Below, one piece after another: positions 3,140 through 24,000 of a stretch of 24,000 nucleotides of DNA. The translations under genes were made by a program, and so were the position numbers. The stretch spans positions 10,605-34,604 of the forward strand of contig JANPRD010000012.1 of the NCBI GenBank assembly GCA_024699715.1, read 5' to 3'. Numbering within the stretch: position 1 is the stretch's first letter; each line of letters opens with the position of its first letter. The notes under the pieces are model-generated. The model did no database searches. It was not told where the DNA came from and saw only the letters and a program-made list of their open reading frames with translations. Origin of the DNA: Candidatus Methanophagales archaeon. GTDB taxonomy: Archaea; Halobacteriota; Syntropharchaeia; Alkanophagales; Methanospirareceae.

Positions 3140-6100
3140 ATGCAGATTGATGTTGATAAAGTTTTGGCGGGAATAAAGCAGGCTGCATTAACTGCAAGAA
3201 ATGAAGAAGAACTTCGGATAAGAGTATCAAGTATTATAGAGAATGAAGTTGTTTCAAAACTTGAAGATATTCCACTTGCGAAGTATGAATACACATTCAT
3301 TTCAGGCGGTAGAGCGGATGCTTTATATGGGCATCTCATTATAGAATACAAGGTTCCGGGCAAACTTTCAACAGAAAGAGATATTGCGAAGGCGAAAGAG
3401 CAGCTCATCGGATACATAAAAAAGGAGGCGGGATATGAAGGTAGGTTCAAGAAGTTCTTAGGTGTAATTATTTCAGATAAGATTGCTTTTGTCAGATATG
3501 ATGAGCATGCAAAAAATTGGGTTCTAAGAGGACCTTATGACATCAGCAGAGAGACTATAATCAGGTTAATAGAGGCTATAAGAGGTCTGAGGAGGAAAAA
3601 ACTTGCTGTTGATGAATTGCTTGAGGATTTCGGTCCCGAGAGCGGAGTTGCGAAGCGAGCAGTCAGAACTTTCTACATGAAAATTTTGAATTCAAGGAGC
3701 GAGAAGGTCAATGTGTTGTTTGAAGATTGGAAGCGTCTCTTCTCTCAGGTCTGCGCTTACAGTCCTGATAAACTCAAGGGGTTAGAAAAGGCGTATAATT
3801 TGGCAGATAAGGATGCGTTGCTTTTCGCAATTCACACGTATTATGCGTTGCTCATGAAGCTGCTTGCCGCAGAGATAACTTATCTCTTCGGAACGGGTAA
3901 GTGGCTGAAATCGTATGTTTTGGAGCTGGAAGATGCGCACATGCGAGGTTTAAGCGCATTAATGGAGGCATTAGAGGATTTGGAGAGTGGAGGGACATTC
4001 AGAAGAATACTCAATATCAAAAACTTCGTTGAGGGCGATTACTTCTCATGGTATCTTGATGAATTTGATGAAGATATTGCGGAAGTCATATCCGAAATTG
4101 CGAAGAAATTATCTGATTATGAGCCTGCAACGCCTGTTCTTGAGCCTGAATATGCGAAGGACATGCTCAAAAGGTTGTATCAACACTTAGTTCCGAGGAA
4201 GGTGAGGCATGATTTGGGCGAGTTTTACACGCCTGACTGGCTTGCTGAGCTTGTTTTGGATGAAGTGGGCTTCACAATTGAGCATTTTGAGGAGATTGCG
4301 AGGCAGAAAGAAGACCCAACCGCTCCTCTTCAGCTCAAACTACTTGACCCCGCATGCGGTTCAGGCACTTTTCTCGTTTCGGCGATTAAGAGATTGAAGG
4401 AGTATGCTGAAAAGCATTATTTGAAGGATGTTTTGGGCGATTATGTGCTCAAAAACATCGTTGGCTACGACCTGAACCCGCTTGCTGTGCTTGCGGCGAG
4501 AACGAATTACCTGCTCGCAATCCGCAGATGTGCTCAGTTACACAAGACATGTTGAGATTCCTGTTTACCTTGCGGATGCACTGCTCGTTGAGACGAACAC
4601 GACAATAACCGGAACCACATATGTCATCAGGACATCAGTCGGAAAGTTTGAGATACCGAAAGATGTCGTTGACAAAGGCACGCTCGGCGAACTGCTGTTC
4701 CACATTGAAGACAGAATTAAATACGATTACTCGCCACCACAATTCATTCAATATCTTAAAGAACGGGGTTTTAATGAGGATTTGCACTTGATTGAGAGCC
4801 TTTATGCCACCTTTTATGAACTTGAGAAGGCTAAAAAGAACAAAATATGGACTTCAATTATCAGAAATGCGTTCGCTCCGCTGCTGAAAGGTGAATTCGT
4901 ATATGTTATTGGGAATCCGCCGTGGATAAACTGGGAGAGTTTGCCTGAAGATTACAGGAAGAGGTCAAAGAGTTTGTGGGAACAATATGGACTGCTTAAG
5001 GGTAAAGGAAAGGGAATGGGAAGGGTCAAGAGGGAAATCGCAGCGCTTTTCGTCGCAAGGTCGCTTGACAAATATGTGAAGGAGGGCGGTAAATTGGCAT
5101 TCCTCGTCCCTTTCACGCTGTTTAAGACACAGGCAGGTGCGGGATTCAGGGAATTCATCGCTAAAGGTGCCAACGGGAAGAATAGAGGAGTCGCATGTAA
5201 AGTGCTTAAAATTCACGATTTGGTGACGCTTTACCCGTTTGAAGGTGCTGTTAACAGGACTGCGATGATTGTCGTTGCGAAAGAAAGAGAGGGAAAAACA
5301 GAATTTCCGATACCTTGCGTTGTCTGGTATAATCCGAGAAGTGGAGGAATAAGCACAGAACTGAAATTGAACGAGGTCAAGGCTATTACGAGAAGATTTG
5401 AAATTGCCTTTCTGCCTGTTGAGAGGGAGAAGTATGAAAGTCCATGGATGCAAATCACCGAAAAGGCTTACGAAGGCATTAAAAAAGTGCTGGGTGAAAG
5501 TGAATACAGGGCTTACGCAGGCGTTTACACAGGATTAAACCAAGTTTATTGGGTTGAGGTTTTGGAAGAAATGCCCGATGACTCGCTTTTAATCAGAAAT
5601 TCCGAGCTGGCAGGTCAGAAAAAGAAAGTGAAAACGGTTGAAGAAACTATTGAGAAGGAATTAGTTTACCCACTCGTGAGAGGAAGAAATGTGAAGAAAT
5701 GGTATGTTGAGAGAGATTTCAGATGGATTATTGTTCCGCACAACCCAGAAACGGGAAAACCTATTCCCGAAAACGAAATTAAATCAAAATATCCTAAAAC
5801 TTACAGTTATCTCTTTAAATTCAAGAAGGAATTGGAAGACCGCTCTATTCACAAGTTATGGGGTAAAGATAACCCTTTCTACGCCGTTTACGCCATCGGG
5901 AAATATTCCTTTTACCCTTACAGAGTTGTTTGGAAATACATTTCAGGGAAAATATCGGGAAAAGCTGATTTTTCAACAGCAGTAATTAAGCCGTTTAATG
6001 GGGACTCTGAAATGAAGACAGTTATTCCGAATGAGAAATTAATGTTAGTTCCTTTAAAGAGTGAGGATGAGGCTTATTATCTTTCTGCAGTTTTAAACTC

Positions 6101-6416
6101 ATCAGTGATTCGGTTATTCGTAGCATCTTATGTGATTGAGACAGAGATTTCAACGCATATACTCGGCAGGGTGAGAATTTCAAAATTTGACGCAAAAAAT
6201 GAAATTCACAGGGAGCTTGCAAGGCTTTCAAAGCGAGCGCATGAAATAGCGAGGGAAATTTACGAGGGGAATAGAGAAGACCTGAAAGCGGATTTGGCTG
6301 AAATAGAGGAGGAGATAGACGAGAAAGTTGCCGAGCTCTACGGAATCACGGGAGAGGAGTTGAGGGAAATAAAGAGATGCCTCAAGATTTTAGAGGAAGG
6401 TGTGGTAGAAGAGTAG
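3140..6416 (+). pseudogene. Type IIG restriction-modification enzyme (fused PD-(D/E)xK nuclease, gamma-class N6-adenine methyltransferase and target-recognition region), split by a +1 frameshift near 4523
   Basis: ORFs 3140..4555 and 4482..6416 overlap in different frames and join as ..ARTNYLLAI|ADVLSYTRHVEIPVYLADAL.. (about 1090 aa). Nuclease motif: D60..E69-x-K71 (RADALYGHLIIEYK, 3317-3352). SAM motif I: LLDPACGSGTF (about 4340-4372). Catalytic motif IV: NPPW (4914-4925). The region is AT-rich compared with its neighbours. Confidence 0.8.
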
Positions 6417-6547
6417 AAGAAAGGGGCGACAAAGGGGTGCGCTGGGAGAGATTCCAAAGAAGAGGTTTGAGTAGGCTTAAGTTAGTCGGATGTGCGGACA
6501 CGCACTAATCGGGAGAGAAAATTTATGTTTCAGCGTGTAAAATAAAT

Positions 6548-6826
6548 ATGCTTGACGAGTTAGAATCTTGGCTCCTCGTAGACGAAAATGCAATTTCAAA
6601 ACGCTTGGGGAAAAATGTGAGAGCAGTTCCGAATCCTGAAAGCATACACGACGCAAAGGAATATTTGGAGGAATTATTTGAAGAAGCGTGTGAGAAATAC
6701 TTGACGAAATTTGGAGGGGAGATTGCGAAGTATGTGGATGTGGAGAAATTGAAAGGTAAGTGTGCATCTTTTGCGGATTTTGAGGGGATGGTAAGGAATG
6801 GTAATGTCAGAAGAAGAGATGCATGA
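6548..6826 (+). pseudogene. 5'-truncated relic of a DUF4276/Toprim-like gene (C-terminal 88 residues only)
   Basis: The 92-aa ORF aligns with residues about 95-184 of ORF 18191..18745 (ELESWLL.DENAIS..NPESIHDAKEYLE..KCASFADFE.MVRNGNVRRRDA), about 78% identical by hand count. The N-terminal part carrying the acidic E and DxD motifs is missing. Confidence 0.7.
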
Positions 6827-7268
6827 GCAGCAGCAAGAGTGGGAGAAGAGCAGGAGGCGAGAGTCGCTGCTTGAGGAATTTTTGCGACCTTCGCATGTGT
6901 TTGCGGTAGTCGGTGCGACGCCGAAGCGAGAGAAATACGGCTACAAGATTTTCAAGAGCCTGAAGGAGGCGGGCTACAAGGTGTATGCGGTGAATCCGAA
7001 CCACGAGGAGATTGAGGGAGAGCGTTGCTACGCATCCTTGAGCGAGCTGCCTGAGAAGCCGGATGTCGTTGACATCGTTGTTCCTCCAGCGGTAACAGAG
7101 CAAATTGTGCGTGAGGCTCACCGCCTCGGCATCAAAAAAATATGGATGCAGCCCGGTGCGGAGAGCGAAGAAGCGATAAAATTCTGCGAAGAGCATGGAA
7201 TATCCGTCATTCACGGTCTCTGCGTCATGCTTGAATCCTTGCGTGCAGCGAGAAAGCGAGAGATATGA
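6798..7268 (+). CDS. CoA-binding domain protein (YccU/YneT-like, CoA_binding_2), copy 1
   Basis: 156 aa. HVFAVVGATPKREKYGYKIFKSLKEAGYKVYAVNPNHEEIEG..CY.SL.ELPEKPDVVDIVVPP is the typical pattern of this family. Confidence 0.85.
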   Translation: MVMSEEEMHEQQQEWEKSRRRESLLEEFLRPSHVFAVVGATPKREKYGYKIFKSLKEAGYKVYAVNPNHEEIEGERCYASLSELPEKPDVVDIVVPPAVTEQIVREAHRLGIKKIWMQPGAESEEAIKFCEEHGISVIHGLCVMLESLRAARKREI

Positions 7269-7292
7269 AAGGCAAAATTGCAACGAAAAGAA

Positions 7293-7565
7293 ATGCGAAA
7301 TGCAGTGGATGAGAAAGAAAAAATGGAAGCACGAGTGAAGAAGGACATCGCCCTTTTTGAGGAGAACTTTTCAAAGATTGAGCGGGTGAGAGCCCCTGAA
7401 GACGCAAAAACGATTGAACTTGCGAGGGCATACTGCGAAGATGCGAAGTTTTACCTTGAAAAAGGCGACTTATTCACCGCTTTCGGTTGCATTAACTACG
7501 CTCACGGTCTTTTAGACGCTGTGAGAATGCGTAAGGAATTCGCTGGTGAGAATAGAAGAGAGTAG
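7293..7565 (+). CDS. Small helical protein, DUF357-like, copy 1
   Basis: ORF 7278..7565 opens on TTG; the first ATG is at 7293. The motif AR.Y.EDAKFYLEKGDLFTAFGCINYAHGLLDA matches my recollection of archaeal DUF357 proteins. Confidence 0.6.
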   Translation: MRNAVDEKEKMEARVKKDIALFEENFSKIERVRAPEDAKTIELARAYCEDAKFYLEKGDLFTAFGCINYAHGLLDAVRMRKEFAGENRRE

Positions 7566-7588
7566 AGGAGCAGCGAGGAGATTAAAAG

Positions 7589-8597
7589 TTAAGAGCAGAG
7601 TGAGATGCCGAGAAGGAATCCGAGAATCGCCCCTGAGTTCAGGAACGGGAGACCTGCGTGGGGTTTTCCCCTGCCTGCGAAAGTGCAAAGGAGAGCGTAA
7701 CCCGCAAGCGTGCCTGCGACAGAACCGATGGCAGAAGCGAAGGATGCGTAGCGGTATGCGGAGACAGCGAGAATCGCAGGAATAATCGCATCGCCGAGAC
7801 CCATGAAAAATGCTTCTCCACCTCCTAACTCCTGCTGCTCCTTCCCGCTTTCCTGCCCCGCTTTCTCCGCTTTTTCCGCTCTTTCTGCTCTTCCTGCTCG
7901 CCCTTTTGCAGCAAGCAGAGAGAACTTGCGTCTGCGAGGCAAGACGAAAAGTAGGGGGACACGCATCTCCACAACGCTTGATGCGAGCGAGACCATGTGC
8001 TTCGTGCCGTAGACGGAGACAGCGTCGTAGACTGCGAGTATGACAAGTAGGACAATTACAGGTAGAACATTTCAGGGAGATGCCGAAAATTGATGCCACT
8101 CCAGAGGCAACAAGCAATCCAACAGCATCAATAATATACCACTCCGGACGAAAGTAGAGCAGAGCGGTGAGAGCAAGCGCTACAATCAAAGGAAATATTT
8201 GAAGCGATGGAACAAAAGCAACATGGAAAATATTGAGAATGATTGGGATAAGGGCGGAAAGCACCCAATATATTGTTGCAGCGACTGCAAATAGCATGAA
8301 AAGATGCACGAACTTCATGCCGCCGAATTTCAAAATCACGAGAATCGCAGCGGTGAAGCCGAGAACGAGGGCGAAGAAGAAGACTGCGTTAGATACGGAT
8401 TCTGGATTTTCAAACGCCTTCATTCCCGCAGTTTCAAACGGTGCTGCGAGAAGCAACGCAAATACATGCGTGAGAAGCAGGAGCAAGCCCATACCCGCAA
8501 ACGCAAAAACATTCCCACGAGATTCTTCCTCCATATCCTTACCTGAACTTTCCTCAAACGCTTGCATGCGCCTCACACGCCCTCTATTTTTGTCCAT
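7589..8597 (-). pseudogene. Presenilin/signal-peptide-peptidase homologue (A22 intramembrane aspartyl protease), copy 1, frameshifted upstream of the YD motif
   Basis: The N-terminal TM region in ORF 7512..8597 is sensible up to ..ASIFGISL and then turns into Arg/Cys-rich nonsense. The rest (..PVIVLLVILAVYDAVSVYGTKHMVSLASS..EAFFMGLGDAIIPAIL..GLPFLNSGAILGF) lies in the frame of ORF 7589..7996. Copy 2 reads GISLQVLPVIVLLVILAVYD without a break. Confidence 0.8.
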
Positions 8598-8639
8598 CGC
8601 CCGAAGGTGGTGCCCGCTCCCTCCGCCCGCTTCTACCGT

Positions 8640-9554
8640 TTAGATTTTGTTGAAGAAGTGTTTGAGGGTTTTTGCGAGTTCAACGCTGTCCGCCTCTGAA
8701 CGCATCAAAATCTTCGCCTTTAATATTTTGCAACTGCTACTGTGGCGGCATTCGTCCTGCTCGTCAATGACTAAAGCGTCAAGGAAATCCTCGTAGCACT
8801 TCAGAACGCCTTCCGCAGAGACTTCAAAGCCGCATGCTCGCATCAGTGCGGCAGCGGGACCGCTCACGGGTCTTCCACCAATAATTGGCGAGACAGCAAG
8901 CACTTTCTTCTCTTTCAAACGCTCTCTTACGCCTCTGAGGCTCAAAATCGGAGAAATGCTTGTTATCGGATTGCTCGGACCGATAAGCACGAAATCCTCC
9001 TCCTCAAGCAGCTCTTTAAATCTCTCAGAAGGCTGAACACGCTCAACGCCTTCAAATCTGACGCCTCGCACAGAAGGCTTTCCTCTCCGCAGGACCCAGA
9101 AATCCTGAAAGTGCATCTCTCCCTCATCCGTGAGGATTTTCGTTTTCACCGCAGCAGGCTCGTCTGTCATCGGAATGACCTCCGCAGAGATGCCGAAGCG
9201 AGAGGCGAGCATAGAAGTCGCTTCACTCAGCGTCAAACCCCTGCGAAGCATCTCAGAACGAAATATGTGCGTCGCCCTGTCCAAGTCTCCGATTTTCAAT
9301 TTCTCGTCGCATCCGAGCCTCAACAACGCCTCATGCGTTTTGAATGTGTCGTTTCGGATGCCCCACCATCTCTCCTCGTCAATCACGCCTGCGAGAGCGT
9401 AAATCACCGCATCTATGTCTGGGCAGACAAGATTTCCTGAAATCCAAACATCTTCAGCCGTATTTACAACAATCTTTAACTCGCTTTCGGGAAAAATCTT
9501 CTTCATTCCAACAAGCAATTTCGGCGTCCCCGTCCCTCCCGATAGAATTATCAT
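8640..9554 (-). CDS. cofD: 2-phospho-L-lactate transferase (F420 biosynthesis), copy 1
   Basis: 304 aa. MIILSGGTGTPKLL..VVNTAEDVW.SG..VCPD.D.V.YALAG is characteristic of CofD. The start overlaps the stop of the upstream GT4 gene by 4 nt (ATGA). Confidence 0.9.
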   Translation of the reverse strand: MIILSGGTGTPKLLVGMKKIFPESELKIVVNTAEDVWISGNLVCPDIDAVIYALAGVIDEERWWGIRNDTFKTHEALLRLGCDEKLKIGDLDRATHIFRSEMLRRGLTLSEATSMLASRFGISAEVIPMTDEPAAVKTKILTDEGEMHFQDFWVLRRGKPSVRGVRFEGVERVQPSERFKELLEEEDFVLIGPSNPITSISPILSLRGVRERLKEKKVLAVSPIIGGRPVSGPAAALMRACGFEVSAEGVLKCYEDFLDALVIDEQDECRHSSSCKILKAKILMRSEADSVELAKTLKHFFNKI

Positions 9555-10624
9555 CTCAACACACTCTCATAAACATCTAAAGTTTGCTCCGCAACCTTAT
9601 CCCATGTGAAATTCTTCGCCTTCTCTCTCGATAAGCGGCCCATTCGCTCCAAATCCTCCTTCAATATCTCCTCTATTGCCTCCTTTATCTCACGAGCGGA
9701 AGTCCCGCAGAGTATTCCGTTTCCTTGCACATAATATCTGTTGTCGCTCACATCAGACGCAATTATCGGCAGTCCTGATGCCATCGCCTCAAGTATTGTG
9801 ATTGGCTGTGCCTCAAGTTTTGACGGCAAAATGAAAATATCAATACTGCGGTAGAAGGAAGGGGCATCATCTACATATCCCAACACCCTTATCCTCTCAT
9901 TTTCCGCCTTTTTAAGTCGCTTTAACAGCGGACCCGTCCCCGCAATCTTTAAATTTATCCGCCTCCCCTCCAAAATCAGCTTCTTTACCGCTCTCACCAT
10001 GTTCAGCACATTCTTCTCGTGTGAGAGCCTGCCGAGGTAGCCGATGCATATCTCTCTTTCTTCACGACGACCCCCGCAGCAGCCTTCCTCCGCTCCTTCC
10101 TCCGCCGTCTCAAGTTCCCATCTCGGCTTGAATCTCTCAATATCAACGCCGTTCGGAATGACGACCGTCTCTGTCTCGTTGTTGCAATATCGCCGTATTT
10201 CCTCCGCAATCGTCCTCGCTACGGAAATAAATTTCTTTGAGCGTCCTGCGTAGAGAGATGCCAGCGTTCCTATCAAAACACGGGCAAGTTCCCCCTCAAA
10301 ACCCTCCCCTATTTGAATGTGGAATGTGTTGATGACGCTTATTTCGCTGCAAATAGACGAGAATGGCATGAGGAATTCAGAAAATGTCGCCGCATGATGA
10401 ATATGAAGGATGTCAAATCCCCCAATCTCTCGCCTTATTTTCTTCAGAGCGATGTCAAATCCGTATGAGATGCCGCCTTTGTGGTTCCCTACCATTAGGG
10501 AATCAAGCGAGAATTGGTTTATTTTCTTCACCTCGTGTCCCCTGCGTTCAAATTCTTTTGAGAGCGCTTCAACATGCGTTTTTATACCTCCATGCACATT
10601 TCGGTAGTAAAATGCAATTCGCAT
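9551..10624 (-). CDS. Glycosyltransferase family 4 (GT-B fold), copy 1
   Basis: ORF 9551..10672 opens on TTG. The likely start is the ATG at 10624 (MRIAFYYRNVHGGI..), which is shared with copy 2. The C-terminal PSKLEAQPITILEAMASGLPIIASDV is the E-x7-E motif of GT4 enzymes. Confidence 0.85.
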   Translation of the reverse strand: MRIAFYYRNVHGGIKTHVEALSKEFERRGHEVKKINQFSLDSLMVGNHKGGISYGFDIALKKIRREIGGFDILHIHHAATFSEFLMPFSSICSEISVINTFHIQIGEGFEGELARVLIGTLASLYAGRSKKFISVARTIAEEIRRYCNNETETVVIPNGVDIERFKPRWELETAEEGAEEGCCGGRREEREICIGYLGRLSHEKNVLNMVRAVKKLILEGRRINLKIAGTGPLLKRLKKAENERIRVLGYVDDAPSFYRSIDIFILPSKLEAQPITILEAMASGLPIIASDVSDNRYYVQGNGILCGTSAREIKEAIEEILKEDLERMGRLSREKAKNFTWDKVAEQTLDVYESVLR

Positions 10625-10743
10625 TGCACACTCCCACCTCACACACGCTCTCCTTGAATTCAAAACGCTCAACGCTTTTTAAAACTTGCGGGAGTAGAAG
10701 GGCAGAGAAGGGCAAAGAAGAGCAAAAGGTGAGCAAGGGGTAG

Positions 10744-12622
10744 ATGGATATGAGGACTTGGAGCAAGAACCGTGAATTTCTCGCCGTTTCCACGCTTACT
10801 CTCGCATTCTTCTGCCTCGCAGTATTCAATTTAGGCTCTCTCCACATTCCCGATTCATGCTGGCAACCCTCCGCTTTTGCGCATGCCGTCGGGCTTAAGT
10901 GGGACGAGAAGATTGAGGTAATTGTCGCTCTTAATAGCACGCTCAACAGCACGGAGAACGCCGAGAAACTTCACAAAAAACGCACTTAACGGCACTTCTA
11001 CAACACAAGTGGGAGCGATTTACATCTTTCTGAACGATGCGAACACGACAAAATTTGAAGTTTTCGGCAAAGGAGACGGCGTCCAATGGCGGAAACTCCA
11101 CACATACGACAACTCAAAGAGCGTTCATTTCTGCAATTGGGAGCGGATTGCGTTGAACACGAATGCATCCTTCTTGAAGTTCGTTTTTGAGCCTACAGAC
11201 GGGAAAGTAGGGGAGATATTTGTGATTTCGCCGAGAGGCGAGAAGATTAACGCAAGCGTTCGCTATTTCGGTGTCAGCAGCAGTCGCAAAAGCAATAGCA
11301 GAAACGGAAGCGGGGAGTGGAATTTGAGCGGAGTTGCGGACCCGAGAAGGCTTTTTGACGAGCAAGCGCTGGATGTGCCTCTGACGCAAGAGAGCGGTGC
11401 ATATTTTGACGAGATGTATTTTGTGCGAACCGCATGGGAACACATTCACTTCAAAGAGCCTTACGAGTGGACGCATCCCCCGCTCGCCAAGTTAATAATC
11501 GCTGCGGGCATTCTGCTCTTCGGAATGAACCCTTTTGGGTGGCGAATTTTCGGCGTTATTGCGGCGACTGCGATGATTCCTCTCGTATTCGTCCTTGCGA
11601 AGCGCATATTCAGGAGCTCTGCGGGGGCTTTCTTCGCATCCTTCCTGCTCACTTTTGACTTCATGCACTTCACCCTCGCAAGGCTTGCAACAGGCGAAAT
11701 CTTCATCATGCTCTTCTCACTCTTAATGTTCTTTTTCGCTGCATCTTTCATTTTCACCGACAGAGGCATGCGGATATTCAGAAGGAATAATAGTGATTTC
11801 TGCCTGTTCTTAAGCACTGTCTCTTTCGGTTTGTGCTTTGCAGTGAAATGGACAGCATTTTACGGCTTCATCTCTGTTATTGTTCTCGTGCTTCTCACGA
11901 ATTTTTTGCGTCGTGAGCAAATCTTGAATGGCTTCAGAGGTATTTTCGCAGGTTTGCTCGTCTCTTCCGCAATATATATCGCTTCTTACATACCTTATAT
12001 GCTTTGCGGTCATTCCCTCTTTGATGTTTTTCTGCTGCAATTCACGATGTTCGGCTACCACGCAGGCTTAAGAGCGACGCATCCTTTCGCATCGGCGTGG
12101 TGGTCCTGGCCTCTAATGCTGAAGCCGCTTTGGCTCTTCGTGAATCCGCTTGACAGCAAGGTCTCAACAGTGGTTCTGCTCGGAAATCCTGCGATTTGGT
12201 GGGGTGGTCTCGCAGCCATCGCTGCGATTTCTGTCTCTTTCGTTAAAACAAGAAGAGAAAGGAGAAGTGCAGATGCGGGTATTGGCGGGATTGAGTTTGA
12301 AGGGATTGAGTTTGAGGGGAACAAGCGGGAAGTAAAACTCTTCATTTTGCTCCCATTTTTCTTGCAGTGGCTCCCTTTTGCGGCGGTCACGAGAATCCTT
12401 TTCATTTACCACTTCGCCCCGAATGTGCTTTTCTTAGTTCTCGCCCTCGCTTACTGGCTTGACGCCCTCTGGCGAGATTCAACAGCGTCAAAAGGAATAG
12501 TCGTTGCGTTCCTCGTCCTTACAGCGTCGCTCTTCGTCCTTTTCTACCCCGTGATTTCAGGCTTTCCGATTGAAGAGGCATACAGAGAGAGCCTGAAGTG
12601 GCTTCCCAGCTGGATTTTCTGA
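10744..12622 (+). pseudogene. PMT/GT39-family dolichyl-phosphate-mannose protein mannosyltransferase with an N-terminal TM anchor and an extracytoplasmic beta-rich domain, copy 1, frameshifted near 10960
   Basis: ORF 10744..10989 (TM anchor, ..NSTLNSTENAEKLHKKRT*) and ORF 10922..12622 (..NFTKNALNGTSTTQVGAIYIF..DEMYFVRTAWEHIHFKEPYEWTHPPLAKL.., multi-TM) are in different frames. Copy 2 reads ..NSTENARNFTKNALNSTSTTQVGAIYIF.. in one frame. The copy offset changes from 11932 to 11931 across this site. Confidence 0.8.
12287..12316. repeat. 2 x 15-bp tandem repeat (gggattgagtttgaR) encoding GIEFEGIEFEG in a PMT loop
   Basis: Seen directly in the sequence and in the translation ..GIGGIEFEGIEFEGNKRE.. 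Confidence 0.8.
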
Positions 12623-17098: not shown

Positions 17099-17108
17099 CT
17101 TATAATTT
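17099..17108 (+). promoter_or_regulatory. A/T-rich TATA-like element (ttataattta) in the thermosome/ATPase divergent intergenic region
   Basis: This is the only strong A/T box between 17016 and 17114. It lies only about 7-16 nt from the TTG start at 17115, so either the true start or TSS is further downstream or this box serves another purpose. Confidence 0.25.
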
Positions 17109-17114
17109 AAGCGT

Positions 17115-18194
17115 TTGGAAGTGCGAAACTACAAGAGTTTGAGGGCTGTCAAAGTGCGATTTGAGCAGTTTAATGTCCTCGTCGGCTTGAACGCAAGCGG
17201 AAAGAGCAACATCATTGACTGCCTCTCGCTTGTCTCCGAAAGTCTGCAAGTTTTCGGCAACATCTCGCAAATCCTTAAGCGAAGAGGAGGATTTAAGCAT
17301 GTAGTATTTCAAGGCGAGGAGGAATTTGATGTGAAAGTGGCTTTCTCTGTCGGGAAAAATAAGTGCGAATATTACATGAAAGCAACAGAGGAAGAAATAG
17401 AAGAAAGATGGTTGAAAATTAATGGGAAGAATTTCATTCAACAGCAGAAAGGAGATGGAAAGTATCTTACAGAGGACTATTCGGAGGTTAAATTAGATAG
17501 GGAATGGGAAAGACTTGCTGCCAGACGACATCTTAAGTGTGCGAAAGAAATTTCGGAATGCTTGGATTACTTGAGCAAGTGGCATTTTTACAGTTTTTCA
17601 ACGCCTGAAATCCGAAGGACGCTGCCTGCGAAGAAGAGTTTTGCTCTCAAGCGGGACGGAAGCAACTTGGCTCAAGTCTTACTTTCACTGCGGACGGAGA
17701 GACCGAAGATTTTCGCTGAAATTGAAGAGATGTTGAAACTCGCAATTCCTGATGTGGAGGAGCTTTTGACGCCTCTTACTGAGGGAGGAGAAACATTTGT
17801 GGCAGTAAGGGAGAAGGGTTTTGAGCATCCTTTTGACTACTACCAACTTTCAGATGGCACTTTGAGACTGCTCGCACACATAACTGCGTTGAATTTGGAT
17901 GCGGAATTGGTGTGTTTTGAGGAGCCGGAGAATTTTGTGCATCCTTATTTACTGCGTTTACTCGTTGAAGTCTTAAAGAAGAGCGGGAAACAGGTGATTC
18001 TCTCAACGCATTCTCCATATTTCTTGGATTTCGTGGAGCCAGAGGATTTAATAATCGTGGAAAAGAAGCGAGGAGAGACGAAAGTGAGGAGGATAGAGGA
18101 TGAAGAAGAGAAGAATAGGGTAAGAAAGCTTTTAGAAGATGGAATACCGCTTGGGGAAGTATATTATAGTGGTGCGTTGAGTGGTGAAGAATGA
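17115..18194 (+). CDS. ABC/SMC-type AAA ATPase (AAA_21 / OLD-N-terminal-like), no transporter partner
   Basis: 359 aa. Walker A: GLNASGKS (17184-17207). Signature-like: YQLSDGTLRLL. Walker B: LVCFEEPE (17907-17930). Also QVILSTHSP. The start codon is uncertain (TTG at 17115, GTG at 17121). The gene is AT-rich. Confidence 0.85.
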   Translation: MEVRNYKSLRAVKVRFEQFNVLVGLNASGKSNIIDCLSLVSESLQVFGNISQILKRRGGFKHVVFQGEEEFDVKVAFSVGKNKCEYYMKATEEEIEERWLKINGKNFIQQQKGDGKYLTEDYSEVKLDREWERLAARRHLKCAKEISECLDYLSKWHFYSFSTPEIRRTLPAKKSFALKRDGSNLAQVLLSLRTERPKIFAEIEEMLKLAIPDVEELLTPLTEGGETFVAVREKGFEHPFDYYQLSDGTLRLLAHITALNLDAELVCFEEPENFVHPYLLRLLVEVLKKSGKQVILSTHSPYFLDFVEPEDLIIVEKKRGETKVRRIEDEEEKNRVRKLLEDGIPLGEVYYSGALSGEE

Positions 18195-18745
18195 AGAAAG
18201 TGGGGTTAGTTGTTGAAGATAAGCATACAGAAGCGATAAAAGAGATAGGCAAAAAGCTCGGTATTAAGCCTATAATTAGGAGGCAAAGAGGTAGAATAAA
18301 TGTGCGGAAGGCATCTGCTTTTGCGAATGAATTACTTAGAAGTTGCGAGAAAGTGATAATTCTTGGGGATGCTGACTGCAACGAGGAGGGGGAGCGAGAG
18401 AGACTTCAGAGAATCTACGAGCATCTTCCTGAAGGGTTGAGAGAGCGTGTTCACATTTGCATTATTGTTCACGAATTGGAATCTTGGCTCCTCGCAGACG
18501 AAAATGCAATTTCAAGAGTCTTAGGGAAAAATGTGAAACCGGTACAGAATCCTGAAAGCATACACGACGCAAAGGAATATTTGGAGGGATTGTTTGAAGA
18601 AGGAGGCGAGAAAAACTTAACGAACTTGCTGGCAGGGGAGATTGCGAAGCATGTGAATGTGGAGAAATTGAGGGAAAAGTGTGCATCTTTTGCGGATTTT
18701 GAGAGGATGGTAAGGAATGGTAATGTCAGAAGAAGAGATGCATGA
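18191..18745 (+). CDS. Toprim-like protein, DUF4276-type (putative nuclease partner of the ATPase)
   Basis: 184 aa. The ATG overlaps the ATPase stop (ATGA). Motifs are GLVVED (acidic strand), VIILGDADC (DxD) and IIVHELESWLLADE. The DUF4276 assignment is from memory of that family's ELESW-type motif. Confidence 0.75.
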   Translation: MKKVGLVVEDKHTEAIKEIGKKLGIKPIIRRQRGRINVRKASAFANELLRSCEKVIILGDADCNEEGERERLQRIYEHLPEGLRERVHICIIVHELESWLLADENAISRVLGKNVKPVQNPESIHDAKEYLEGLFEEGGEKNLTNLLAGEIAKHVNVEKLREKCASFADFERMVRNGNVRRRDA

Positions 18746-19187
18746 GCAGCAGCAAGAGTGGGAGAAGAGTAGGAGGCGAGAATCACTGCTTGAGGAATTT
18801 TTGCGACCTTCGCATGTGTTTGCGGTAGTCGGTGCGACGCCGAAGCGAGAGAAATACGGCTACAAGATTTTCAAGAGCCTGAAGGAGGCGGGCTACAAGG
18901 TGTATGCGGTGAATCCGAACCACGAGGAGATTGAGGGTGAGCGTTGCTACGCATCCTTGAGCGAGCTGCCTGAGAAGCCGGATGTCGTTGACATCGTTGT
19001 TCCTCCAGCGGTAACAGAGCAAATTGTGCGTGAGGCTCACCGCCTCGGCATCAAAAGAATATGGATGCAGCCCGGTGCGGAGAGCGAAGAAGCGATAAAA
19101 TTCTGCGAAGAGCATGGAATATCTGTCATTCACGGTCTCTGCGTCATGCTTGAATCCTTGCGTGCAGCGAGAAAGCGAGAGATATGA
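18717..19187 (+). CDS. CoA-binding domain protein, copy 2
   Basis: 156 aa, differing from copy 1 at one residue (GIKKIW versus GIKRIW). Confidence 0.85.
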   Translation: MVMSEEEMHEQQQEWEKSRRRESLLEEFLRPSHVFAVVGATPKREKYGYKIFKSLKEAGYKVYAVNPNHEEIEGERCYASLSELPEKPDVVDIVVPPAVTEQIVREAHRLGIKRIWMQPGAESEEAIKFCEEHGISVIHGLCVMLESLRAARKREI

Positions 19188-19211
19188 GAGGCAAAATTGC
19201 AACGAAAAGAA

Positions 19212-19511
19212 ATGCGAAATGCGGTGGATGAGAAAGAAAAAACGGAAGCACGGGTGAAGAAGGACATCGCTCTTTTTGAGGAGAACTTTTCAAAGATTGA
19301 GCAAGTGAGAGACCCTGCAGACGCAAAAACGATTGAACTTGCGAGGGCATACTGCGAAGATGCGAAGTTTTACCTTGAAAAAGGCGACTTATTCACCGCT
19401 TTCGGTTGCATTAACTACGCTCACGGTCTTTTAGACGCTGTGAGAATGCGTAAGGAATTCGCTGGGGAGAATAGAAGAGAGCAGAGGAGCAGCAAGAAGC
19501 TTAAAAGTTAA
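19212..19511 (+). CDS. DUF357-like small protein, copy 2 (C-terminal extension of 9 aa)
   Basis: Same as copy 1 with about 4 substitutions. Copy 1 stops after ..ENRRE, whereas copy 2 reads on as ..ENRREQRSSKKLKS. Its 3' end therefore overlaps the convergent presenilin-like gene. Confidence 0.6.
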   Translation: MRNAVDEKEKTEARVKKDIALFEENFSKIEQVRDPADAKTIELARAYCEDAKFYLEKGDLFTAFGCINYAHGLLDAVRMRKEFAGENRREQRSSKKLKS

Positions 19512-20528
19512 GAGCCGAGTGAGACGCCGAGAAGGAATCCGAGAATCGCCCCTGAGTTCAGGAAAGGGAGACCTGCGTGGGGCTTTCCCCTGCCTGCGAA
19601 AGTGCAAAGGAGAGCGTAACCCGCAAGCGTGCCTGCGACAGAACCGATGGCAGAAGCAAAGGATGCGTAGCGGTATGCTGAGACTGCGAGAATCGCAGGA
19701 ATAATCGCATCGCCGAGACCCATGAAAAATGCTTCTCCACCTCCTAACTCCTGCTGCTCCTTTCCGCCTTCCTGCCCCGCTTTCTCCGCTTTTTCCGCCC
19801 GCTCTTTCTGCTCTTCCTGCTCGCCCTTTTGCAGCACCCACTTTAAGCAGAGAGAACTTGCGTCTGCGAGGCAAGACGAAAAGTAGGGGAACACGCATCT
19901 CCACAACGCTTGATGCGAGCGAGACCATGTGCTTCGTGCCGTAGACGGAGACAGCGTCGTAGACTGCGAGTATGACAAGTAGGACAATTACAGGCAGAAC
20001 TTGCAGGGAGATGCCGAAAATTGATGCCACTCCAGAGGCAACAAGCAATCCAACAGCATCAATAACATACCACTCCGGACGAAAGTAGAGCAGAGCGGTG
20101 AGAGCAAGCGCCACAATCAAAGGAAATATATCAAGCGCTGGAACGAAAGCAACATGGAAAATATTGAGAATGATTGGAACGAAGGCGGAAAGCACCCAAT
20201 ATATTGTCGCAGCGACTGCAAATAGCATGAAAAGATGCACGAACTTCATGCCGCCGAATTTCAAAATCACGAGAATCGCAGCGGTGAAGCAGAGAACGAG
20301 GGCGAAGAAGAAGACTGCGTTAAATACGGATTCTGGATTTTCAAACGCCTTCATTCCCGCAGTTTCAAACGGTGCTGCGAGAAGCAACGCAAAGACATGC
20401 GTGAGAAGCAGGAGCAAGCCCATACCCGCAAACGCAAAAACATTCCCACGAGATTCTTCCTCCACATCCTTACCTGAACTTTCCTCAAACGCTTGCATGC
20501 GCCTCACACGCCCTCTATTTTTGTCCAT
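19508..20528 (-). pseudogene. Presenilin/SPP homologue, copy 2, frameshifted in the cytosolic loop between the YD and GLGD motifs
   Basis: ORF 19431..20528 carries the N-terminus through ..AVYDAVSVYGTKHMVSLASS..RRRKFSLLKVGAAKGRAGRAERA and then becomes nonsense. The segment ..ELGGGEAFFMGLGDAIIPAIL.. lies in the frame of ORF 19508..19987. Relative to copy 1 there is a roughly 4-nt insertion near 19796-19801 and an in-frame 9-nt insertion near 19837-19845. Confidence 0.8.
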
Positions 20529-20571
20529 CGCCCGAAGGTGGTGCCCGCTCCCTCCGCCCGCTCGCTACCGC

Positions 20572-21486
20572 TTAGATTTTGTTGAAGAATTGTTTGAGGG
20601 TTTTTGCGAGTTCAACGCTGTCCGCCTCTGAACGCATCAAAATCTTCGCCTTTAATATTTTGCAACTGCTACTGTGGCAGCATTCGTCCTGCTCGTCAAT
20701 GACTAAAGCGTCAAGGAAATCCTCGTAGCACTTCAGAACGCCTTCCGCAGAGACTTCAAAGCCGCATGCTCGCATCAGTGCAGCAGCGGGACCGCTCACG
20801 GGTCTTCCACCAATAATTGGCGATATTGCAATAACTTTCTTCTCTTTCAAACGCTCTCTTACGCCTCTGAGGCTCAAAATCGGAGAAATGCTTGTTATCG
20901 GATTGCTCGGACCGATAAGCACGAAATCCTCCTCCTCAAGCAGCTCTTTAAATCTCTCAGAAGGCTGAACACGCTCAACGCCTTCAAATCTGACGCCTCG
21001 CACAGAAGGCTTTCCTCTCCGCAGGACCCAGAAATCCTGAAAGTGCATCTCCCCCTCATCCGTGAGGATTTTCGTTTTCACCGCAGCAGGCTCGTCTGTC
21101 ATCGGAATGACCTCCGCAGAGATGCCGAAGCGAGAGGCGAGCATAGAAGTCGCTTCACTCAGCGTCAAACCCCTGCGAAGCATTTCAGAACGAAATATGT
21201 GCGTCGCCCTGTCCAAGTCGCCAATTTTCAGTTTCTCGTCGCATCCAAGCCTTAACAAAGCGGAATGCGTTTTGAATGTGTCGTTTCGGATGCCCCACCA
21301 TCTCTCCTCGTCAATCACGCCTGCGAGAGCGTAAATCACCGCATCTATGTCTGGGCAGACAAGATTGCCTGAAATCCAAACATCTTCAGCCGTATTTACA
21401 ACAATCTTTAACTCGCTTTCGGGAAAAATCTTCTTCATTCCAATAAGCAATTTCGGCGTTCCCGTCCCTCCCGATAGAATTATCAT
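20572..21486 (-). CDS. cofD: 2-phospho-L-lactate transferase, copy 2
   Basis: 304 aa, with about 6 substitutions relative to copy 1. Confidence 0.9.
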   Translation of the reverse strand: MIILSGGTGTPKLLIGMKKIFPESELKIVVNTAEDVWISGNLVCPDIDAVIYALAGVIDEERWWGIRNDTFKTHSALLRLGCDEKLKIGDLDRATHIFRSEMLRRGLTLSEATSMLASRFGISAEVIPMTDEPAAVKTKILTDEGEMHFQDFWVLRRGKPSVRGVRFEGVERVQPSERFKELLEEEDFVLIGPSNPITSISPILSLRGVRERLKEKKVIAISPIIGGRPVSGPAAALMRACGFEVSAEGVLKCYEDFLDALVIDEQDECCHSSSCKILKAKILMRSEADSVELAKTLKQFFNKI

Positions 21487-22556
21487 CTCAACACACTCTC
21501 ATAAACATCTAAAGTTTGCTCCGCAACTTTATCCCATGTGAAATTCTTCGCCTTCTCTCTTGATAAGCGACCCATTCGCTCCAAATCCTCCTTCAATATC
21601 TCCTCTATTGCCTCCTTTATCTCACGAGCGGAAGTCCCGCAGAGTATTCCGTTCCCTTGCACATAATATCTGTTGTCGCTCACATCTGAAGCAATTATCG
21701 GCAGTCCTGATGCCATCGCCTCAAGTATTGTGATTGGCTGTGCCTCAAGTTTTGACGGCAAAATGAAAATATCAATACTGCGGTAGAATGAAGGTGCATC
21801 ATCTACATATCCCAACACCCTTATCCTCTCATTTTCCGCCCTTTTAAGTCGCTTGAACAGCGGACCTGTCCCCGCAATCCTTAAATTTATCCGCTTCCCC
21901 TCCAAAATCAGCTTCTTTACCGCTCTCACCATGTTCAGCACATTCTTCTCGTGTGAGAGCCTGCCGAGGTAGCCGATGCATATCTCTCCTTCTTCACGAC
22001 GCCCCCCGCAGCAGCCTTCCTCCGCTCCTTCCTCCGCCGTCTCAAGTTCCCATCTCGGCTTGAATCTCTCAATATCAACGCCGTTCGGAATGACGACCGT
22101 CTCTGTCTCGTTGTTGCAATATCGCCGTATTTCCTCCGCAATCGTCCTCGCCACGGAAATAAATTTCTTTGAGCGTCCTGCGTAGAGAGATGCGAGCGTT
22201 CCTATCAAAACACGGGCAAGTTCCCCCTCAAAACCCTCCCCTATTTGAATGTGGAATGTGTTGATTACGCTTATTTCACTGCAAATAGATGAGAATGGCA
22301 TGAGAAATTCTGAAAATGTCGCCGCATGATGAATATGAAGGATGTCAAAACCCTCAATCTCACGCCTTATTTTCTTCAGAGCGATGTCAAATCCGTATGA
22401 GATGCCGCCTTTGTGGTTTCCTACCATTAAGGAATCAAGCGAGAATTGGTTTATTTTCTTCACCTCGTGTCCTCTGCGTTCAAATTCTTTTGAGAGCGCT
22501 TCAACATGCGTTTTTATACCTCCATGCACATTTCGGTAGTAAAATGCAATTCGCAT
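21483..22556 (-). CDS. Glycosyltransferase family 4, copy 2
   Basis: ORF 21483..22724 is open further upstream, but the conserved start MRIAFYY maps to 22556. It has about 7 substitutions relative to copy 1. Confidence 0.85.
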   Translation of the reverse strand: MRIAFYYRNVHGGIKTHVEALSKEFERRGHEVKKINQFSLDSLMVGNHKGGISYGFDIALKKIRREIEGFDILHIHHAATFSEFLMPFSSICSEISVINTFHIQIGEGFEGELARVLIGTLASLYAGRSKKFISVARTIAEEIRRYCNNETETVVIPNGVDIERFKPRWELETAEEGAEEGCCGGRREEGEICIGYLGRLSHEKNVLNMVRAVKKLILEGKRINLRIAGTGPLFKRLKRAENERIRVLGYVDDAPSFYRSIDIFILPSKLEAQPITILEAMASGLPIIASDVSDNRYYVQGNGILCGTSAREIKEAIEEILKEDLERMGRLSREKAKNFTWDKVAEQTLDVYESVLR

Positions 22557-22675
22557 TGCACACTCCCACCCACACACGCTCTCCTTGAATTCAAAACGCT
22601 CAACGCTTTTTAAAACTTGCGGGAGTAGAAGGGCAGAGAAGGACAGAGAAGAGCAGAAGGTGAGGCAAGGGGTAG

Positions 22676-24000
22676 ATGGATATGAGGACTTGGAGCAAGA
22701 ACCGTGAATTTCTCGCCGTTTCAACGCTCACTCTCGCATTCTTCTGCCTCGCAGTATTCAATTTGGGCTCTCTCCACATTCCTGACTCATGCTGGCAACC
22801 CTCCGCTTTTGCGCATGCCGTCGGGCTTAAGTGGGACGAGAAGATTGAGGTAATTGTCGCTCTTAACAGCACGCTCAACAGCACGGAGAACGCCAGAAAC
22901 TTCACAAAAAACGCACTTAACAGCACTTCTACAACACAAGTGGGAGCGATTTACATCTTTCTGAGCGATGCGAACACGACAAAATTTGAAGTTTTCGGCA
23001 AAGGAGACGGCGCCCAATGGCGGAAACTCCACACATACGACAACTCAAAGAGCGTTCATTTCTGCAATTGGGAGCGGATTGCGTTGAACACGAACGCATC
23101 CTTCTTGAAGTTCGTTTTTGAGCCTACAGACGGGAAAGTAGGGGAAATATTTGTGATTTCGCCGAGAGGCGAGAAGATTAACGCAAGCGTTCGCTATTTC
23201 GGTGTCAGCAGCAGTCGCAAAAACAGCAAAAACGAGAGCAAGGAGGAGTGGAATTTGAGCGGAGTTGCGGACCCGAGAAGGCTTTTTGACGAGCAAGCGC
23301 TGGATGTGCCTCTGACGCAAGAGAGCGGTGCGTATTTTGACGAGATGTATTTTGTGCGAACCGCATGGGAGCATATTCACTTTAAAGAGCCTTACGAGTG
23401 GACGCATCCTCCGCTCGCCAAGTTAATAATCGCTGCGGGCATTCTGCTCTTCGGAATGAACCCTTTTGGGTGGCGAATTTTTGGCGTTATTGCGGCGACT
23501 GCGATGATTCCTCTCGTATTCATCCTTGCGAAGCGCATATTCAGGAGCTCTGCGGGAGCTTTCTTCGCTTCCTTCCTGCTCACTTTTGACTTCATGCACT
23601 TCACGCTCGCAAGACTTGCAACAGGCGAAATCTTCATCATGCTCTTCTCACTCTTAATGTTCTTTTTCGCTGCATCTTTCATTTTCGCCGACAAAGGCAT
23701 GCGGATATTCGGAAGGAATAATAGTGATTTCTGCCTGTTCTTAAGCACTGTCTCTTTCGGTTTGTGCTTTGCAGTGAAATGGACAGCATTTTACGGCTTC
23801 ATCTCTGTTATTGTTCTCGTGCTTCTCACGAATTTTTTGCGTCGTGAGCAAATCTTAAGAGGCTTCAGAGGTATTTTCGCAGGTTTGCTCGTCTCTTCCG
23901 CAATATATATCGCTTCTTACATACCTTATATGCTTTGCGGTCATTCCCTCTTTGATGTTTTTCTGCTGCAATTCACGATGTTCGGCTACCACGCAGGCTT
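22676..24000 (+). CDS. PMT/GT39-family mannosyltransferase with N-terminal anchor and beta-rich domain, copy 2, intact as far as the window edge (partial)
   Basis: My translation from the ATG at 22676 stays open to 24000: MDMRTWSKNREFLAVSTLTLAFFCLAVF..NSTENARNFTKNALNSTSTTQVGAIYIFLSDANTTKFEVFG..DEMYFVRTAWEHIHF... The ORF track lists no counterpart of the 81-aa stub seen in copy 1, as expected for an open frame running off the edge. Confidence 0.8.
   Translation, partial: MDMRTWSKNREFLAVSTLTLAFFCLAVFNLGSLHIPDSCWQPSAFAHAVGLKWDEKIEVIVALNSTLNSTENARNFTKNALNSTSTTQVGAIYIFLSDANTTKFEVFGKGDGAQWRKLHTYDNSKSVHFCNWERIALNTNASFLKFVFEPTDGKVGEIFVISPRGEKINASVRYFGVSSSRKNSKNESKEEWNLSGVADPRRLFDEQALDVPLTQESGAYFDEMYFVRTAWEHIHFKEPYEWTHPPLAKLIIAAGILLFGMNPFGWRIFGVIAATAMIPLVFILAKRIFRSSAGAFFASFLLTFDFMHFTLARLATGEIFIMLFSLLMFFFAASFIFADKGMRIFGRNNSDFCLFLSTVSFGLCFAVKWTAFYGFISVIVLVLLTNFLRREQILRGFRGIFAGLLVSSAIYIASYIPYMLCGHSLFDVFLLQFTMFGYHAG

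Follow-up and report, generated by a model that had tools for sequence, protein, structure and literature searches.

Among the candidate defense systems cataloged in PADLOC-DB v2 is HEC-01 (Hma-embedded candidate 01), which was discovered embedded in Hma (helicase-methylase-ATPase) loci and pairs an ABC ATPase with a TOPRIM protein, HEC-01B, whose metal site is conserved (Payne et al., bioRxiv 10.1101/2024.01.29.577857). In a cold-seep study from 2026, HEC-01 was one of the twelve most abundant system types, and a representative was reported to protect Escherichia coli from one or more of T4, T5, and T7. A similar pair forms part of MADS in Pseudomonas aeruginosa, in which mad3 and mad4 are required for defense and the methyltransferase gene mad5 could be deleted only together with mad2 or mad3 (bioRxiv 10.1101/2023.03.30.534895), and the PARIS paper names “AbiL and MADS3-4” among the systems built from an ABC ATPase together with a TOPRIM protein. 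Here, we describe a gene pair of this kind from a Candidatus Methanophagales archaeon (GenBank assembly GCA_024699715.1, contig JANPRD010000012.1, positions 10,605 to 34,604 of the forward strand). This whole stretch of 24,000 nucleotides is referred to as the window, and positions are counted from its first letter. The pair comprises the following features:

17115–18194, + strand: gene 1, ABC ATPase (AAA_21/AAA_15, HEC-01A type), 359 aa, TTG start
18191–18745, + strand: gene 2, DUF4276 Toprim-like protein (HEC-01B type), 184 aa, ATG start
18191–18194, + strand: ATGA stop/start overlap at the boundary of gene 1 and gene 2

We favor, with a probability of roughly 60%, the reading that these genes form a translationally coupled unit of a coiled-coil-less ABC ATPase and a small putative nuclease of DUF4276 Toprim type, which belongs to HEC-01, behaves as an accessory defense-like cassette, and has been rearranged in this genome. 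The architecture is that of a “split OLD,” within the broad group of OLD, Gabija, PARIS, AbiL, and MADS MAD3/MAD4.

Assignment of the gene pair to HEC-01

A preliminary description, made from the letters of the window, had proposed two plus-strand open reading frames (ORFs) joined by an ATGA overlap, and both frames and the overlap are present in the sequence. Gene 1 matched the PADLOC HEC-01A model PDLC04182 over residues 2–356 of its 359 (E = 7.9e-62), with HEC-01A models making up nine of its top 15 PADLOC matches, the top five included. Gene 2 matched the HEC-01B model PDLC04194 (E = 6.4e-13), and 17 of its 21 PADLOC matches were to HEC-01B models. Judged by these profile matches, the pair is an archaeal member, from a Methanospirare-like lineage of the anaerobic methanotrophic archaea ANME-1, of the already cataloged candidate system HEC-01. 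The claim that no such pair had been characterized experimentally thus has to be withdrawn: PADLOC lists HEC-01, MAD3 and MAD4 are required in MADS, and HEC-01 has been tested twice, once with a negative and once with a positive outcome. The architecture, the Toprim assignment, and the defense hypothesis are already published, and no new category is opened here.

Gene 1 is an ABC ATPase of the SMC/Rad50/OLD type without a transporter partner, as had been read from its motifs. It matched Pfam AAA_21 (E = 2e-32) and also AAA_15, and a Foldseek search with its AlphaFold model (pLDDT, predicted local distance difference test, 92) returned Rad50 (E = 5.7e-13), followed by retron/Septu PtuA, SMC heads, and OLD (6p74). 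The model contains a beta-rich insert at residues 70–127 and no long helical segment. The motifs themselves, namely Walker A (G24-x4-G29-K30-S31), the signature (S246-D247-G248), Walker B (E269-E270), and H299 of the H-loop, occupy columns that are invariant, or almost so, in an alignment of 68 sequences. A Shine-Dalgarno-like GGTGA lies 3 nt upstream of the gene 2 start, and together with the ATGA overlap it suggests that the two genes are translationally coupled.

Gene 2 and the Toprim fold

The identification of gene 2 as a DUF4276 protein, initially made from a motif, was borne out by a Pfam profile search (E = 1.7e-14). In its structural model (pLDDT 92), a helical half comes after a b1-a1-b2-a2-b3-a3-b4 core; strand b1 spans residues 2–8 and leads directly into E9, and b3 spans residues 54–60 and ends at D60-A-D62. 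The candidate metal-binding residues are E9 and D60/D62, and the DUF4276 hallmark is E97-x-W99...D103. Among 128 DUF4276 cluster representatives, W99 was retained in all, D60 in 127, E97 and D103 in 126 each, and E9 in 112; position 62 was D in 75, H in 24, E in 19, and N in 7.

An alignment of 73 DUF4276 sequences was compared by hhalign with an OLD Toprim alignment of nine sequences, P2 Old and eight plasmid homologs. The two aligned over 60 columns with 82% probability (E = 1.1e-5), in a register that pairs LVVED with LLVEG, RGR with DGK, and ILGDADC with ILADCDF, so that E9 and D60-x-D62 fall on the catalytic E and DxD. Against P2 Old alone the probability was 2%, with the register correct, and the comparison is informative only with the nine-sequence OLD alignment. 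A tblastn search of plasmids with the C-terminal region of P2 Old gave no match. Structure searches were less telling. Foldseek with the gene 2 model found nothing significant in the PDB and no Toprim protein within the top 50 matches; in BFVD its matches were to an RloB-like protein (E = 3e-3, TM 0.49) and to Toprim domains of topoisomerases, all weak and none significant. Sequence and 73-sequence profile searches of solved structures with gene 2 gave nothing meaningful, the best match being an NtrC-type helix-turn-helix (E = 0.19), and Pfam Toprim_Old was not matched directly.

The E...DxD layout attributed to gene 2 was upheld by the hhalign result and the conservation of E9 and D60, with D62 an aspartate in only 75 of 128 representatives. 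Foldseek gave no significant Toprim match. The Toprim reading is supported by profile evidence and published work; it brings together the beta-alpha core, conserved E9 and D60, the hhalign match to OLD Toprim, and the literature. The assignment agrees with PMC12065111 and with bioRxiv 10.1101/2024.01.29.577857, and the Menshen paper places DUF4276 and RloB among the Toprim members and equates Mad4 with DUF4276.

The top PDB match of the gene 2 model was an archaeal riboflavin synthase (E = 1e-3, TM 0.36–0.44). In other archaeal contigs the pair lies between two genes for DMRL_synthase, of the riboflavin synthase family, or beside one (L006/L007, 7424–10057; L008, 1683–2111). This correspondence is probably a coincidence of generic alpha/beta folds.

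Distribution and constancy of the pair

The proteins closest to those of the window, at 85–98% identity, come from Guaymas-type metagenomes and from metagenome-assembled genomes (MAGs) of “Candidatus Methanospirare jalkutatii” (ANME-1). In these relatives the locus runs IF-2B (− strand), ATPase, DUF4276, CoA-binding, DUF357, SPP, CofD, GT, PMT, two unannotated ORFs, TldD (− strand), and thermosome (− strand). Further afield, only 532 clusters at 50% identity were found among 1.84 billion representatives, and a motif scan found 13 loci in 185,579 species genomes. In the genome locus search, which used a nine-sequence DUF4276 alignment (A4), an ATPase homolog lay immediately upstream on the same strand, with its stop overlapping or abutting the DUF4276 start, in all 12 evaluable GTDB genome loci. 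These span Elusimicrobia, Deltaproteobacteria, Nitrospinota, Thermoguttaceae, Pandoraea, Chloroflexota, Treponema, and a Methanosarcinales MAG, and most share the 4-nt overlap. Among metagenome loci, an automatic test found the upstream ATPase in 59 of 67, of which 42 have the 4-nt overlap. The eight apparent misses comprise four frameshift-split DUF4276 genes (L047, L057, L059, and L081), two over-long ORFs that are artifacts of ORF calling, and loci L036 and L082; in six of the eight, an ATPase is nonetheless present upstream, hidden by the frameshifts or over-long calls. The pairing of ATPase and DUF4276 is thus nearly universal, across both Archaea and Bacteria.

The two remaining misses are of a different nature. 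In L036, which has a DUF4276 protein with 91% identity to gene 2, the 3' end of the ATPase gene and the DUF4276 start are separated by an inserted TnpB/Cas12f-like gene of the IS200/IS605 type (330–1622, − strand; PF07282, E = 2.5e-15). L082 (1704–1961) is a second, independent C-terminal remnant of DUF4276 without an ATPase. If the frameshifts are not errors of sequencing, the pair seems to be inactivated often in these archaeal populations. Further, the position of the pair differs between related archaeal contigs. At L009 (8001–9584), an ATPase homolog with 41% identity (P0208) is followed by an unannotated 132-aa ORF in place of DUF4276, within a cluster of NTP_transf_2, PIN, and PaREP1 genes that includes a second AAA_21 ATPase. 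On the basis of this locus, the ATPase evidently swaps effector partners.

Composition, selection, and the immediate downstream gene

The cassette had been described as AT-rich, at about 33% GC against about 58% in the thermosome gene. Its GC content is indeed below that of its flanks (43.2%, compared with 50–53% for flanking housekeeping genes and 47.6% for the window), but a value near 33% is reached only in the one 60-nt line of lowest GC (31.7%), and the thermosome gene has 52.8%. The ratio of nonsynonymous to synonymous substitution rates (dN/dS) was 0.11–0.24 for gene 1, with 0.11 against the nearest relative, and 0.29–0.40 for gene 2, values that indicate purifying selection on both. 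Compared with L003, dS was 0.19–0.20 for the pair and 0.01 for the adjoining CoA-binding gene, which suggests that the pair has had a separate history, either faster or recombining. The adjoining gene is:

18717–19187, + strand: CoA-binding protein gene, a conserved downstream neighbor only in the Methanospirare-like lineage

The first 29 nt of this gene coincide with the end of gene 2 (18717–18745), the same overlap is seen in L001, L003, and L011, and this arrangement suggests that in the Methanospirare-like lineage the CoA-binding housekeeping gene is co-transcribed with the pair. At three Chloroflexota loci (L029, 4384–6222; L031, 8390–10228; L033, 8347–10077), the DUF4276 stop overlaps the start of a gene for a bifunctional NAD(P)H-hydrate repair enzyme (YjeF_N plus Carb_kinase), so here too the pair is integrated into an operon of housekeeping type. 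No tRNA or Rfam features were found within the window.

Such surroundings raise the question of whether the pair is a housekeeping module for DNA repair or chromosome maintenance, working in the manner of RecF and RecR and unrelated to viruses. The ABC ATPase RecF has a Toprim protein, RecR, as its partner, gene 1 resembles Rad50, SMC heads, and RecF in both fold and sequence, the pair is syntenic among housekeeping genes in Methanospirare-like genomes and in the three Chloroflexota loci, and both genes are under purifying selection. However, the distribution is patchy (532 clusters; 13 loci), the pair has a lower GC content and a much higher dS than the genes that flank it, its position varies between related contigs, and the pair has repeatedly suffered deletion, insertion sequence (IS) insertion, and frameshifts. 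Its best profile matches are to families of defense candidates, and relatives are required for MADS defense. We consider a housekeeping role very improbable.

Rearrangement of the locus in the window

The window contains a repeated block, and the pair of the window lies at one of its novel junctions. The features involved are:

18463–24000: second copy of the repeated block (copy B), equivalent to 6547–12069, with 95–98% identity outside the DUF4276 part
17099–17114: junction J2, with the break at ~17108–17112, joining the thermosome upstream region to ATPase codon 4
6485–6826, + strand: copy-A remnant, the ATPase upstream region and ATG CTT GA fused in frame to DUF4276 codon 95 onward
S0: ATPase promoter and three codons
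S1: ATPase codon 4 to DUF4276 codon 94
S2: DUF4276 codon 95 to the thermosome upstream region
7604–8627 and 19523–20564, − strand: the two copies of the SPP (signal-peptide-peptidase) gene, both frameshifted

The repeat begins inside gene 2, at ~18463 in the codons for ELESWLL, and not, as first thought, with the cassette lying exactly at the block edge. At J2, homology to ATPase orthologs begins at codon 4 (~17110; TAA TTT AAG / CGT TTG GAA). Upstream of the break lies the thermosome 5' region, identical to that of L034 and L035 up to the TAAATTATAAG element; this conserved TAAATTATAAG element falls within the thermosome upstream part, and the native ATPase promoter and ATG are absent. The preliminary description also placed a decayed paralog of gene 2 beside the type IIG restriction gene in copy A. 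It has not decayed by point mutation; rather, it is a clean in-frame fusion ORF (6548–6826, + strand) of 92 aa, MLDELESWLL..., that encodes the C-terminal half of DUF4276 and matches PADLOC HEC-01B (E = 1.8e-7). Since this fusion ORF retains the ATPase promoter and start codon, the C-terminal helical half of DUF4276 could be expressed from it as a free product, which might conceivably compete for the ATPase.

The order in the window is thus S0-S2-S1-S2', both novel junctions share the breakpoint at ATPase codons 3/4, and the microhomology is 2–4 nt. This order may be explained most simply by one duplicative event, in which template switching inserted the 10.6-kb S2 at the 5' end of the ATPase gene. 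The DUF4276 allele of copy A is 95% identical to that of Ca. Methanospirare jalkutatii and 88.5% identical to that of copy B, compared with 95–98% over the remainder of the block. The sequence may thus reflect recombination between strains or a chimeric assembly. The SPP gene is frameshifted in both copies at differing sites (~8067–8071 and ~19800–19819), which may mean that both copies are decaying or that the assembly is prone to indels; the latter is a real possibility and would also make the frameshift in the type IIG gene (near 4482–4555) doubtful. In the complete Ca. Methanospirare jalkutatii genome, two inverted copies of a region of >20 kb that includes the pair lie ~1 Mb apart (CP110382.1; L001, 69417–89968; L002, 1068719–1089270), so this chromosomal segment appears to be duplication-prone in the lineage.

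The consequences for gene 1 are considerable. Its orthologs have 362–363 aa and begin MLERLEVRNY, and gene 1 lacks the first four codons. A compensatory origin of its TTG start was considered and rejected, as the nearest intact ortholog, L011, has TTG at the same Leu codon. The copy in the window could accordingly be an unexpressed relic whose ORFs are intact only because the event was recent, or a chimeric assembly of two strains, and we regard this as a serious contender even though we lean against it. The MLER start and native upstream region are missing at a homology break of 17108–17112; the first possible starts are TTG or GTG without a Shine-Dalgarno motif; the DUF4276 alleles diverge more than the rest of the block; several genes of the window are frameshifted (the restriction gene, and SPP in both copies at different sites); and broken versions of the pair occur in close relatives too. 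Set against this, 1.63 kb of sequence is free of stop codons and frameshifts, all catalytic residues of both genes are kept, and dN/dS for gene 1 is 0.11. Gene 1 is directly adjoined by a conserved AT-rich, TATA-like element that belongs to the divergent thermosome promoter and could drive transcription of gene 1, and a k-mer assembler would presumably not normally bridge a junction erroneously across 2–4 nt of microhomology.

Neighborhood and linkage to restriction-modification genes

An enrichment of such pairs next to known defense genes had been put forward as a check, and it did not hold in general: defense-island association is weak and most neighbors are housekeeping genes. The specific link that recurs is to restriction-modification (RM) and methyltransferase genes, of which the window provides one example:

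3140–6416, + strand: type IIG restriction enzyme-methyltransferase, frameshift-split into ORFs 3140–4555 and 4482–6416

This gene matches PADLOC REase_MTase_IIG (PDLC03630) at profile positions 8–471 (E = 2.7e-154) and 471–1099 (E = 1.6e-191), as well as Pfam N6_Mtase, MmeI_Mtase, and Eco57I, and has a GC content of 42.4%. It lies between IF-2B and the copy-A ATPase promoter, on the same strand as the pair. Since it is missing from the orthologous loci of close relatives (L001, L003, and L011), it was inserted beside the pair in this lineage. Elsewhere, type IIG genes overlap the ATPase start in the L102 group and L111 and adjoin the pair in L004, L005, and L055; L022 has the pair embedded in a type I RM locus, with HsdR overlapping the DUF4276 stop; and in L021 a type III methyltransferase and an NsnB-like ATPase adjoin the pair. 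In L008 an RM gene lies ~6 kb away, the others being immediately adjacent. By a rough count with no matched control, about 6 of ~25 distinct contexts are RM-linked, which would be far above chance for a gene class with a frequency of ~1%. The type IIG gene of the window was rejected as a homolog of the L005 neighbor (tblastn gave nothing at 1e-3), and by their sequences the RM neighbors are independent acquisitions.

The linkage invites an explanation in which the pair is not autonomous but is the nuclease or motor accessory of a methylation-based restriction system, comparable to the mad2-mad3-mad4 core of MADS or to the Rlo genes in type I RM loci. The type IIG (MAD2-like) enzyme would mark or read DNA and the pair would cleave it or amplify the response, and the ancestral locus before the rearrangement would have run type IIG RM, ATPase, DUF4276. 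The type IIG gene directly upstream on the same strand in copy A, the overlaps in the L102 group and L111, and the type IIG, type I, and type III associations just listed all fit this explanation. The PADLOC mad2 model matches the type IIG enzymes next to the pairs, so the trio resembles mad2-mad3-mad4; mad5 is deletable only with mad2 or mad3, and mad3 and mad4 are needed for MADS defense. HEC-01 itself was discovered inside Hma loci. However, the closest orthologous loci (L001, L002, L003, L011, and L038) hold the pair with no RM gene, most bacterial loci have no RM neighbor, and scores below the MAD3 and MAD4 cut-offs mean that the proteins are not MADS orthologs. Further, the type IIG neighbors are of differing subfamilies and orientations, which fits co-localization better than a fixed complex. 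An accessory role of this kind is unlikely in our view.

A bolder form of the same idea, to which we give little credence, is that the pair is a portable restriction add-on that couples functionally to whichever type IIG, I, or III methyltransferase-bearing enzyme adjoins it, as a minimal mad2-mad3-mad4-like module. It might then act as a nuclease dependent on methylation status, or it might stand guard in the manner of PARIS, being triggered once the neighboring RM enzyme is disabled by anti-restriction proteins of a virus. If so, the window would record a unit of type IIG RM, ATPase, and DUF4276 in the course of being dismantled.

Interpretation

Under the reading that we prefer, that of an accessory HEC-01 cassette, the ATPase would dimerize or oligomerize through its nucleotide-binding sites, bind the DUF4276 subunit, and serve as the sensor, by analogy with PARIS, OLD, Gabija, and MADS. 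On a viral or foreign-DNA cue, ATP binding or hydrolysis would release or activate the Toprim subunit, whose metal site (E9, D60, and D62, aided by the E97/D103 motif) would then cut nucleic acid, either DNA or RNA. The pair would be a horizontally moving cassette, often situated beside type IIG, I, or III RM genes and frequently lost or broken. We see it as accessory because of its lower GC, higher dS, variable position, and recurrent losses (copy A, L082, L036, and the four split contigs). In the window, illegitimate recombination would have put a copy of the 10.6-kb downstream segment between ATPase codons 3 and 4, leaving the pair without its promoter and first four codons. It would now depend on a TTG or GTG start beside the thermosome promoter, and its present activity is uncertain.

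Several observations weigh against this reading. The first HEC-01 to be tested gave no protection in E. coli MG1655, and the same authors also call the general defense-island association weak (Payne et al., bioRxiv 10.1101/2024.01.29.577857). In our own Pfam and PADLOC searches (109 + 140 ORFs; 13 genome and 28 metagenome loci), the neighbors were mostly housekeeping genes, with which the pair is syntenic in the Methanospirare lineage and in Chloroflexota (L029, L031, and L033). The second aspartate of the DxD, D62, is replaced by H, N, or E in ~40% of the DUF4276 family, and the possible starts of gene 1, TTG or GTG, come with no ATG, native promoter, or obvious Shine-Dalgarno motif. The mechanism of sensing and release is taken over by analogy from PARIS. 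Finally, no relatives of gene 2 were found in plasmid, phage, or viral-contig collections, and it has no PHROG family; carriage by known mobile elements or viruses was dropped from consideration for this reason.

HEC-01 is among the commonest candidate defense types in cold-seep microbes, and ANME-1 are globally important uncultured methane oxidizers with a large virome; the pair is a well-defined archaeal HEC-01 member and offers a clean sequence set for biochemistry. Conserved residues available for mutation are K30, E269/E270, and H299 of the ATPase and E9, D60, E97, W99, and D103 of the putative nuclease. A further lead that can be tested is that the pair is repeatedly found in physical linkage with RM genes of types IIG, I, and III.

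Comparison with known systems

MADS has the same gene order, an AAA_21-type ATPase followed by a DUF4276 protein (MAD3/MAD4), and the window proteins match the PADLOC models for mad3 (E = 9.8e-34) and mad4 (E = 4.5e-3). Membership was nevertheless rejected: the NCBIfam scores, 129.8 bits for MAD3 and 31.1 bits for MAD4, are below the cut-offs of 420 and 160, and the mandatory MAD6–8 are absent, the neighbors being thermosome, CoA-binding, DUF357, SPP, CofD, and similar genes. A complete MADS comprises eight genes. In the window, a MAD2-like type IIG enzyme lies beside copy A.

The OLD family (P2 Old of class 1; GajA of Gabija, class 2) and HEC-04 combine an ABC ATPase with a Toprim of E...DxD layout, and gene 1 matches the PADLOC Old and GajA models. 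In OLD, GajA, and HEC-04, however, ATPase and Toprim are fused in one polypeptide, whereas the window pair is encoded by two ORFs. The pair does not belong to OLD classes 1–2: the ORFs are separate, Toprim_Old is not matched, and the profile-profile similarity is remote. Two features of DUF4276 also set it apart from OLD, namely a helical C-terminal half of its own and the ExW...D hallmark. AbiL (AbiLi/AbiLii) and RloA/RloB likewise join an ATPase to a small protein of the Toprim superfamily, often in RM loci, and gene 1 matches PADLOC AbiLi (E = 1.4e-26). Gene 2, in contrast, is a DUF4276 protein rather than RloB or AbiLii and has no PADLOC AbiLii match, although an RloB-like protein is its best named, if weak, structural match in BFVD.

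PARIS is likewise composed of a separate AAA_15/21 ABC ATPase and a free-standing Toprim effector, and its logic of sensing and release is plausible for the pair as well. As the preliminary description had recognized, the Toprim family differs: AriB is a DUF4435 protein, and membership in PARIS was rejected in that gene 2 matched neither DUF4435 nor AriB at E ≤ 1 in Pfam and PADLOC. AriA assembles into a hexamer shaped like a propeller, whereas the gene 1 model has no long helical segment. For PARIS, unlike HEC-01, both the trigger (Ocr) and the target (tRNA-Lys) are established. The nearest counterpart remains HEC-01, which has the same two-gene layout, HEC-01A being an ABC ATPase that carries beta-rich insert 1 and HEC-01B being TOPRIM-like; the pair of the window differs from it in being archaeal, in lying outside an Hma locus, between thermosome and CoA-binding genes, and in having an ATPase gene truncated at its 5' end.

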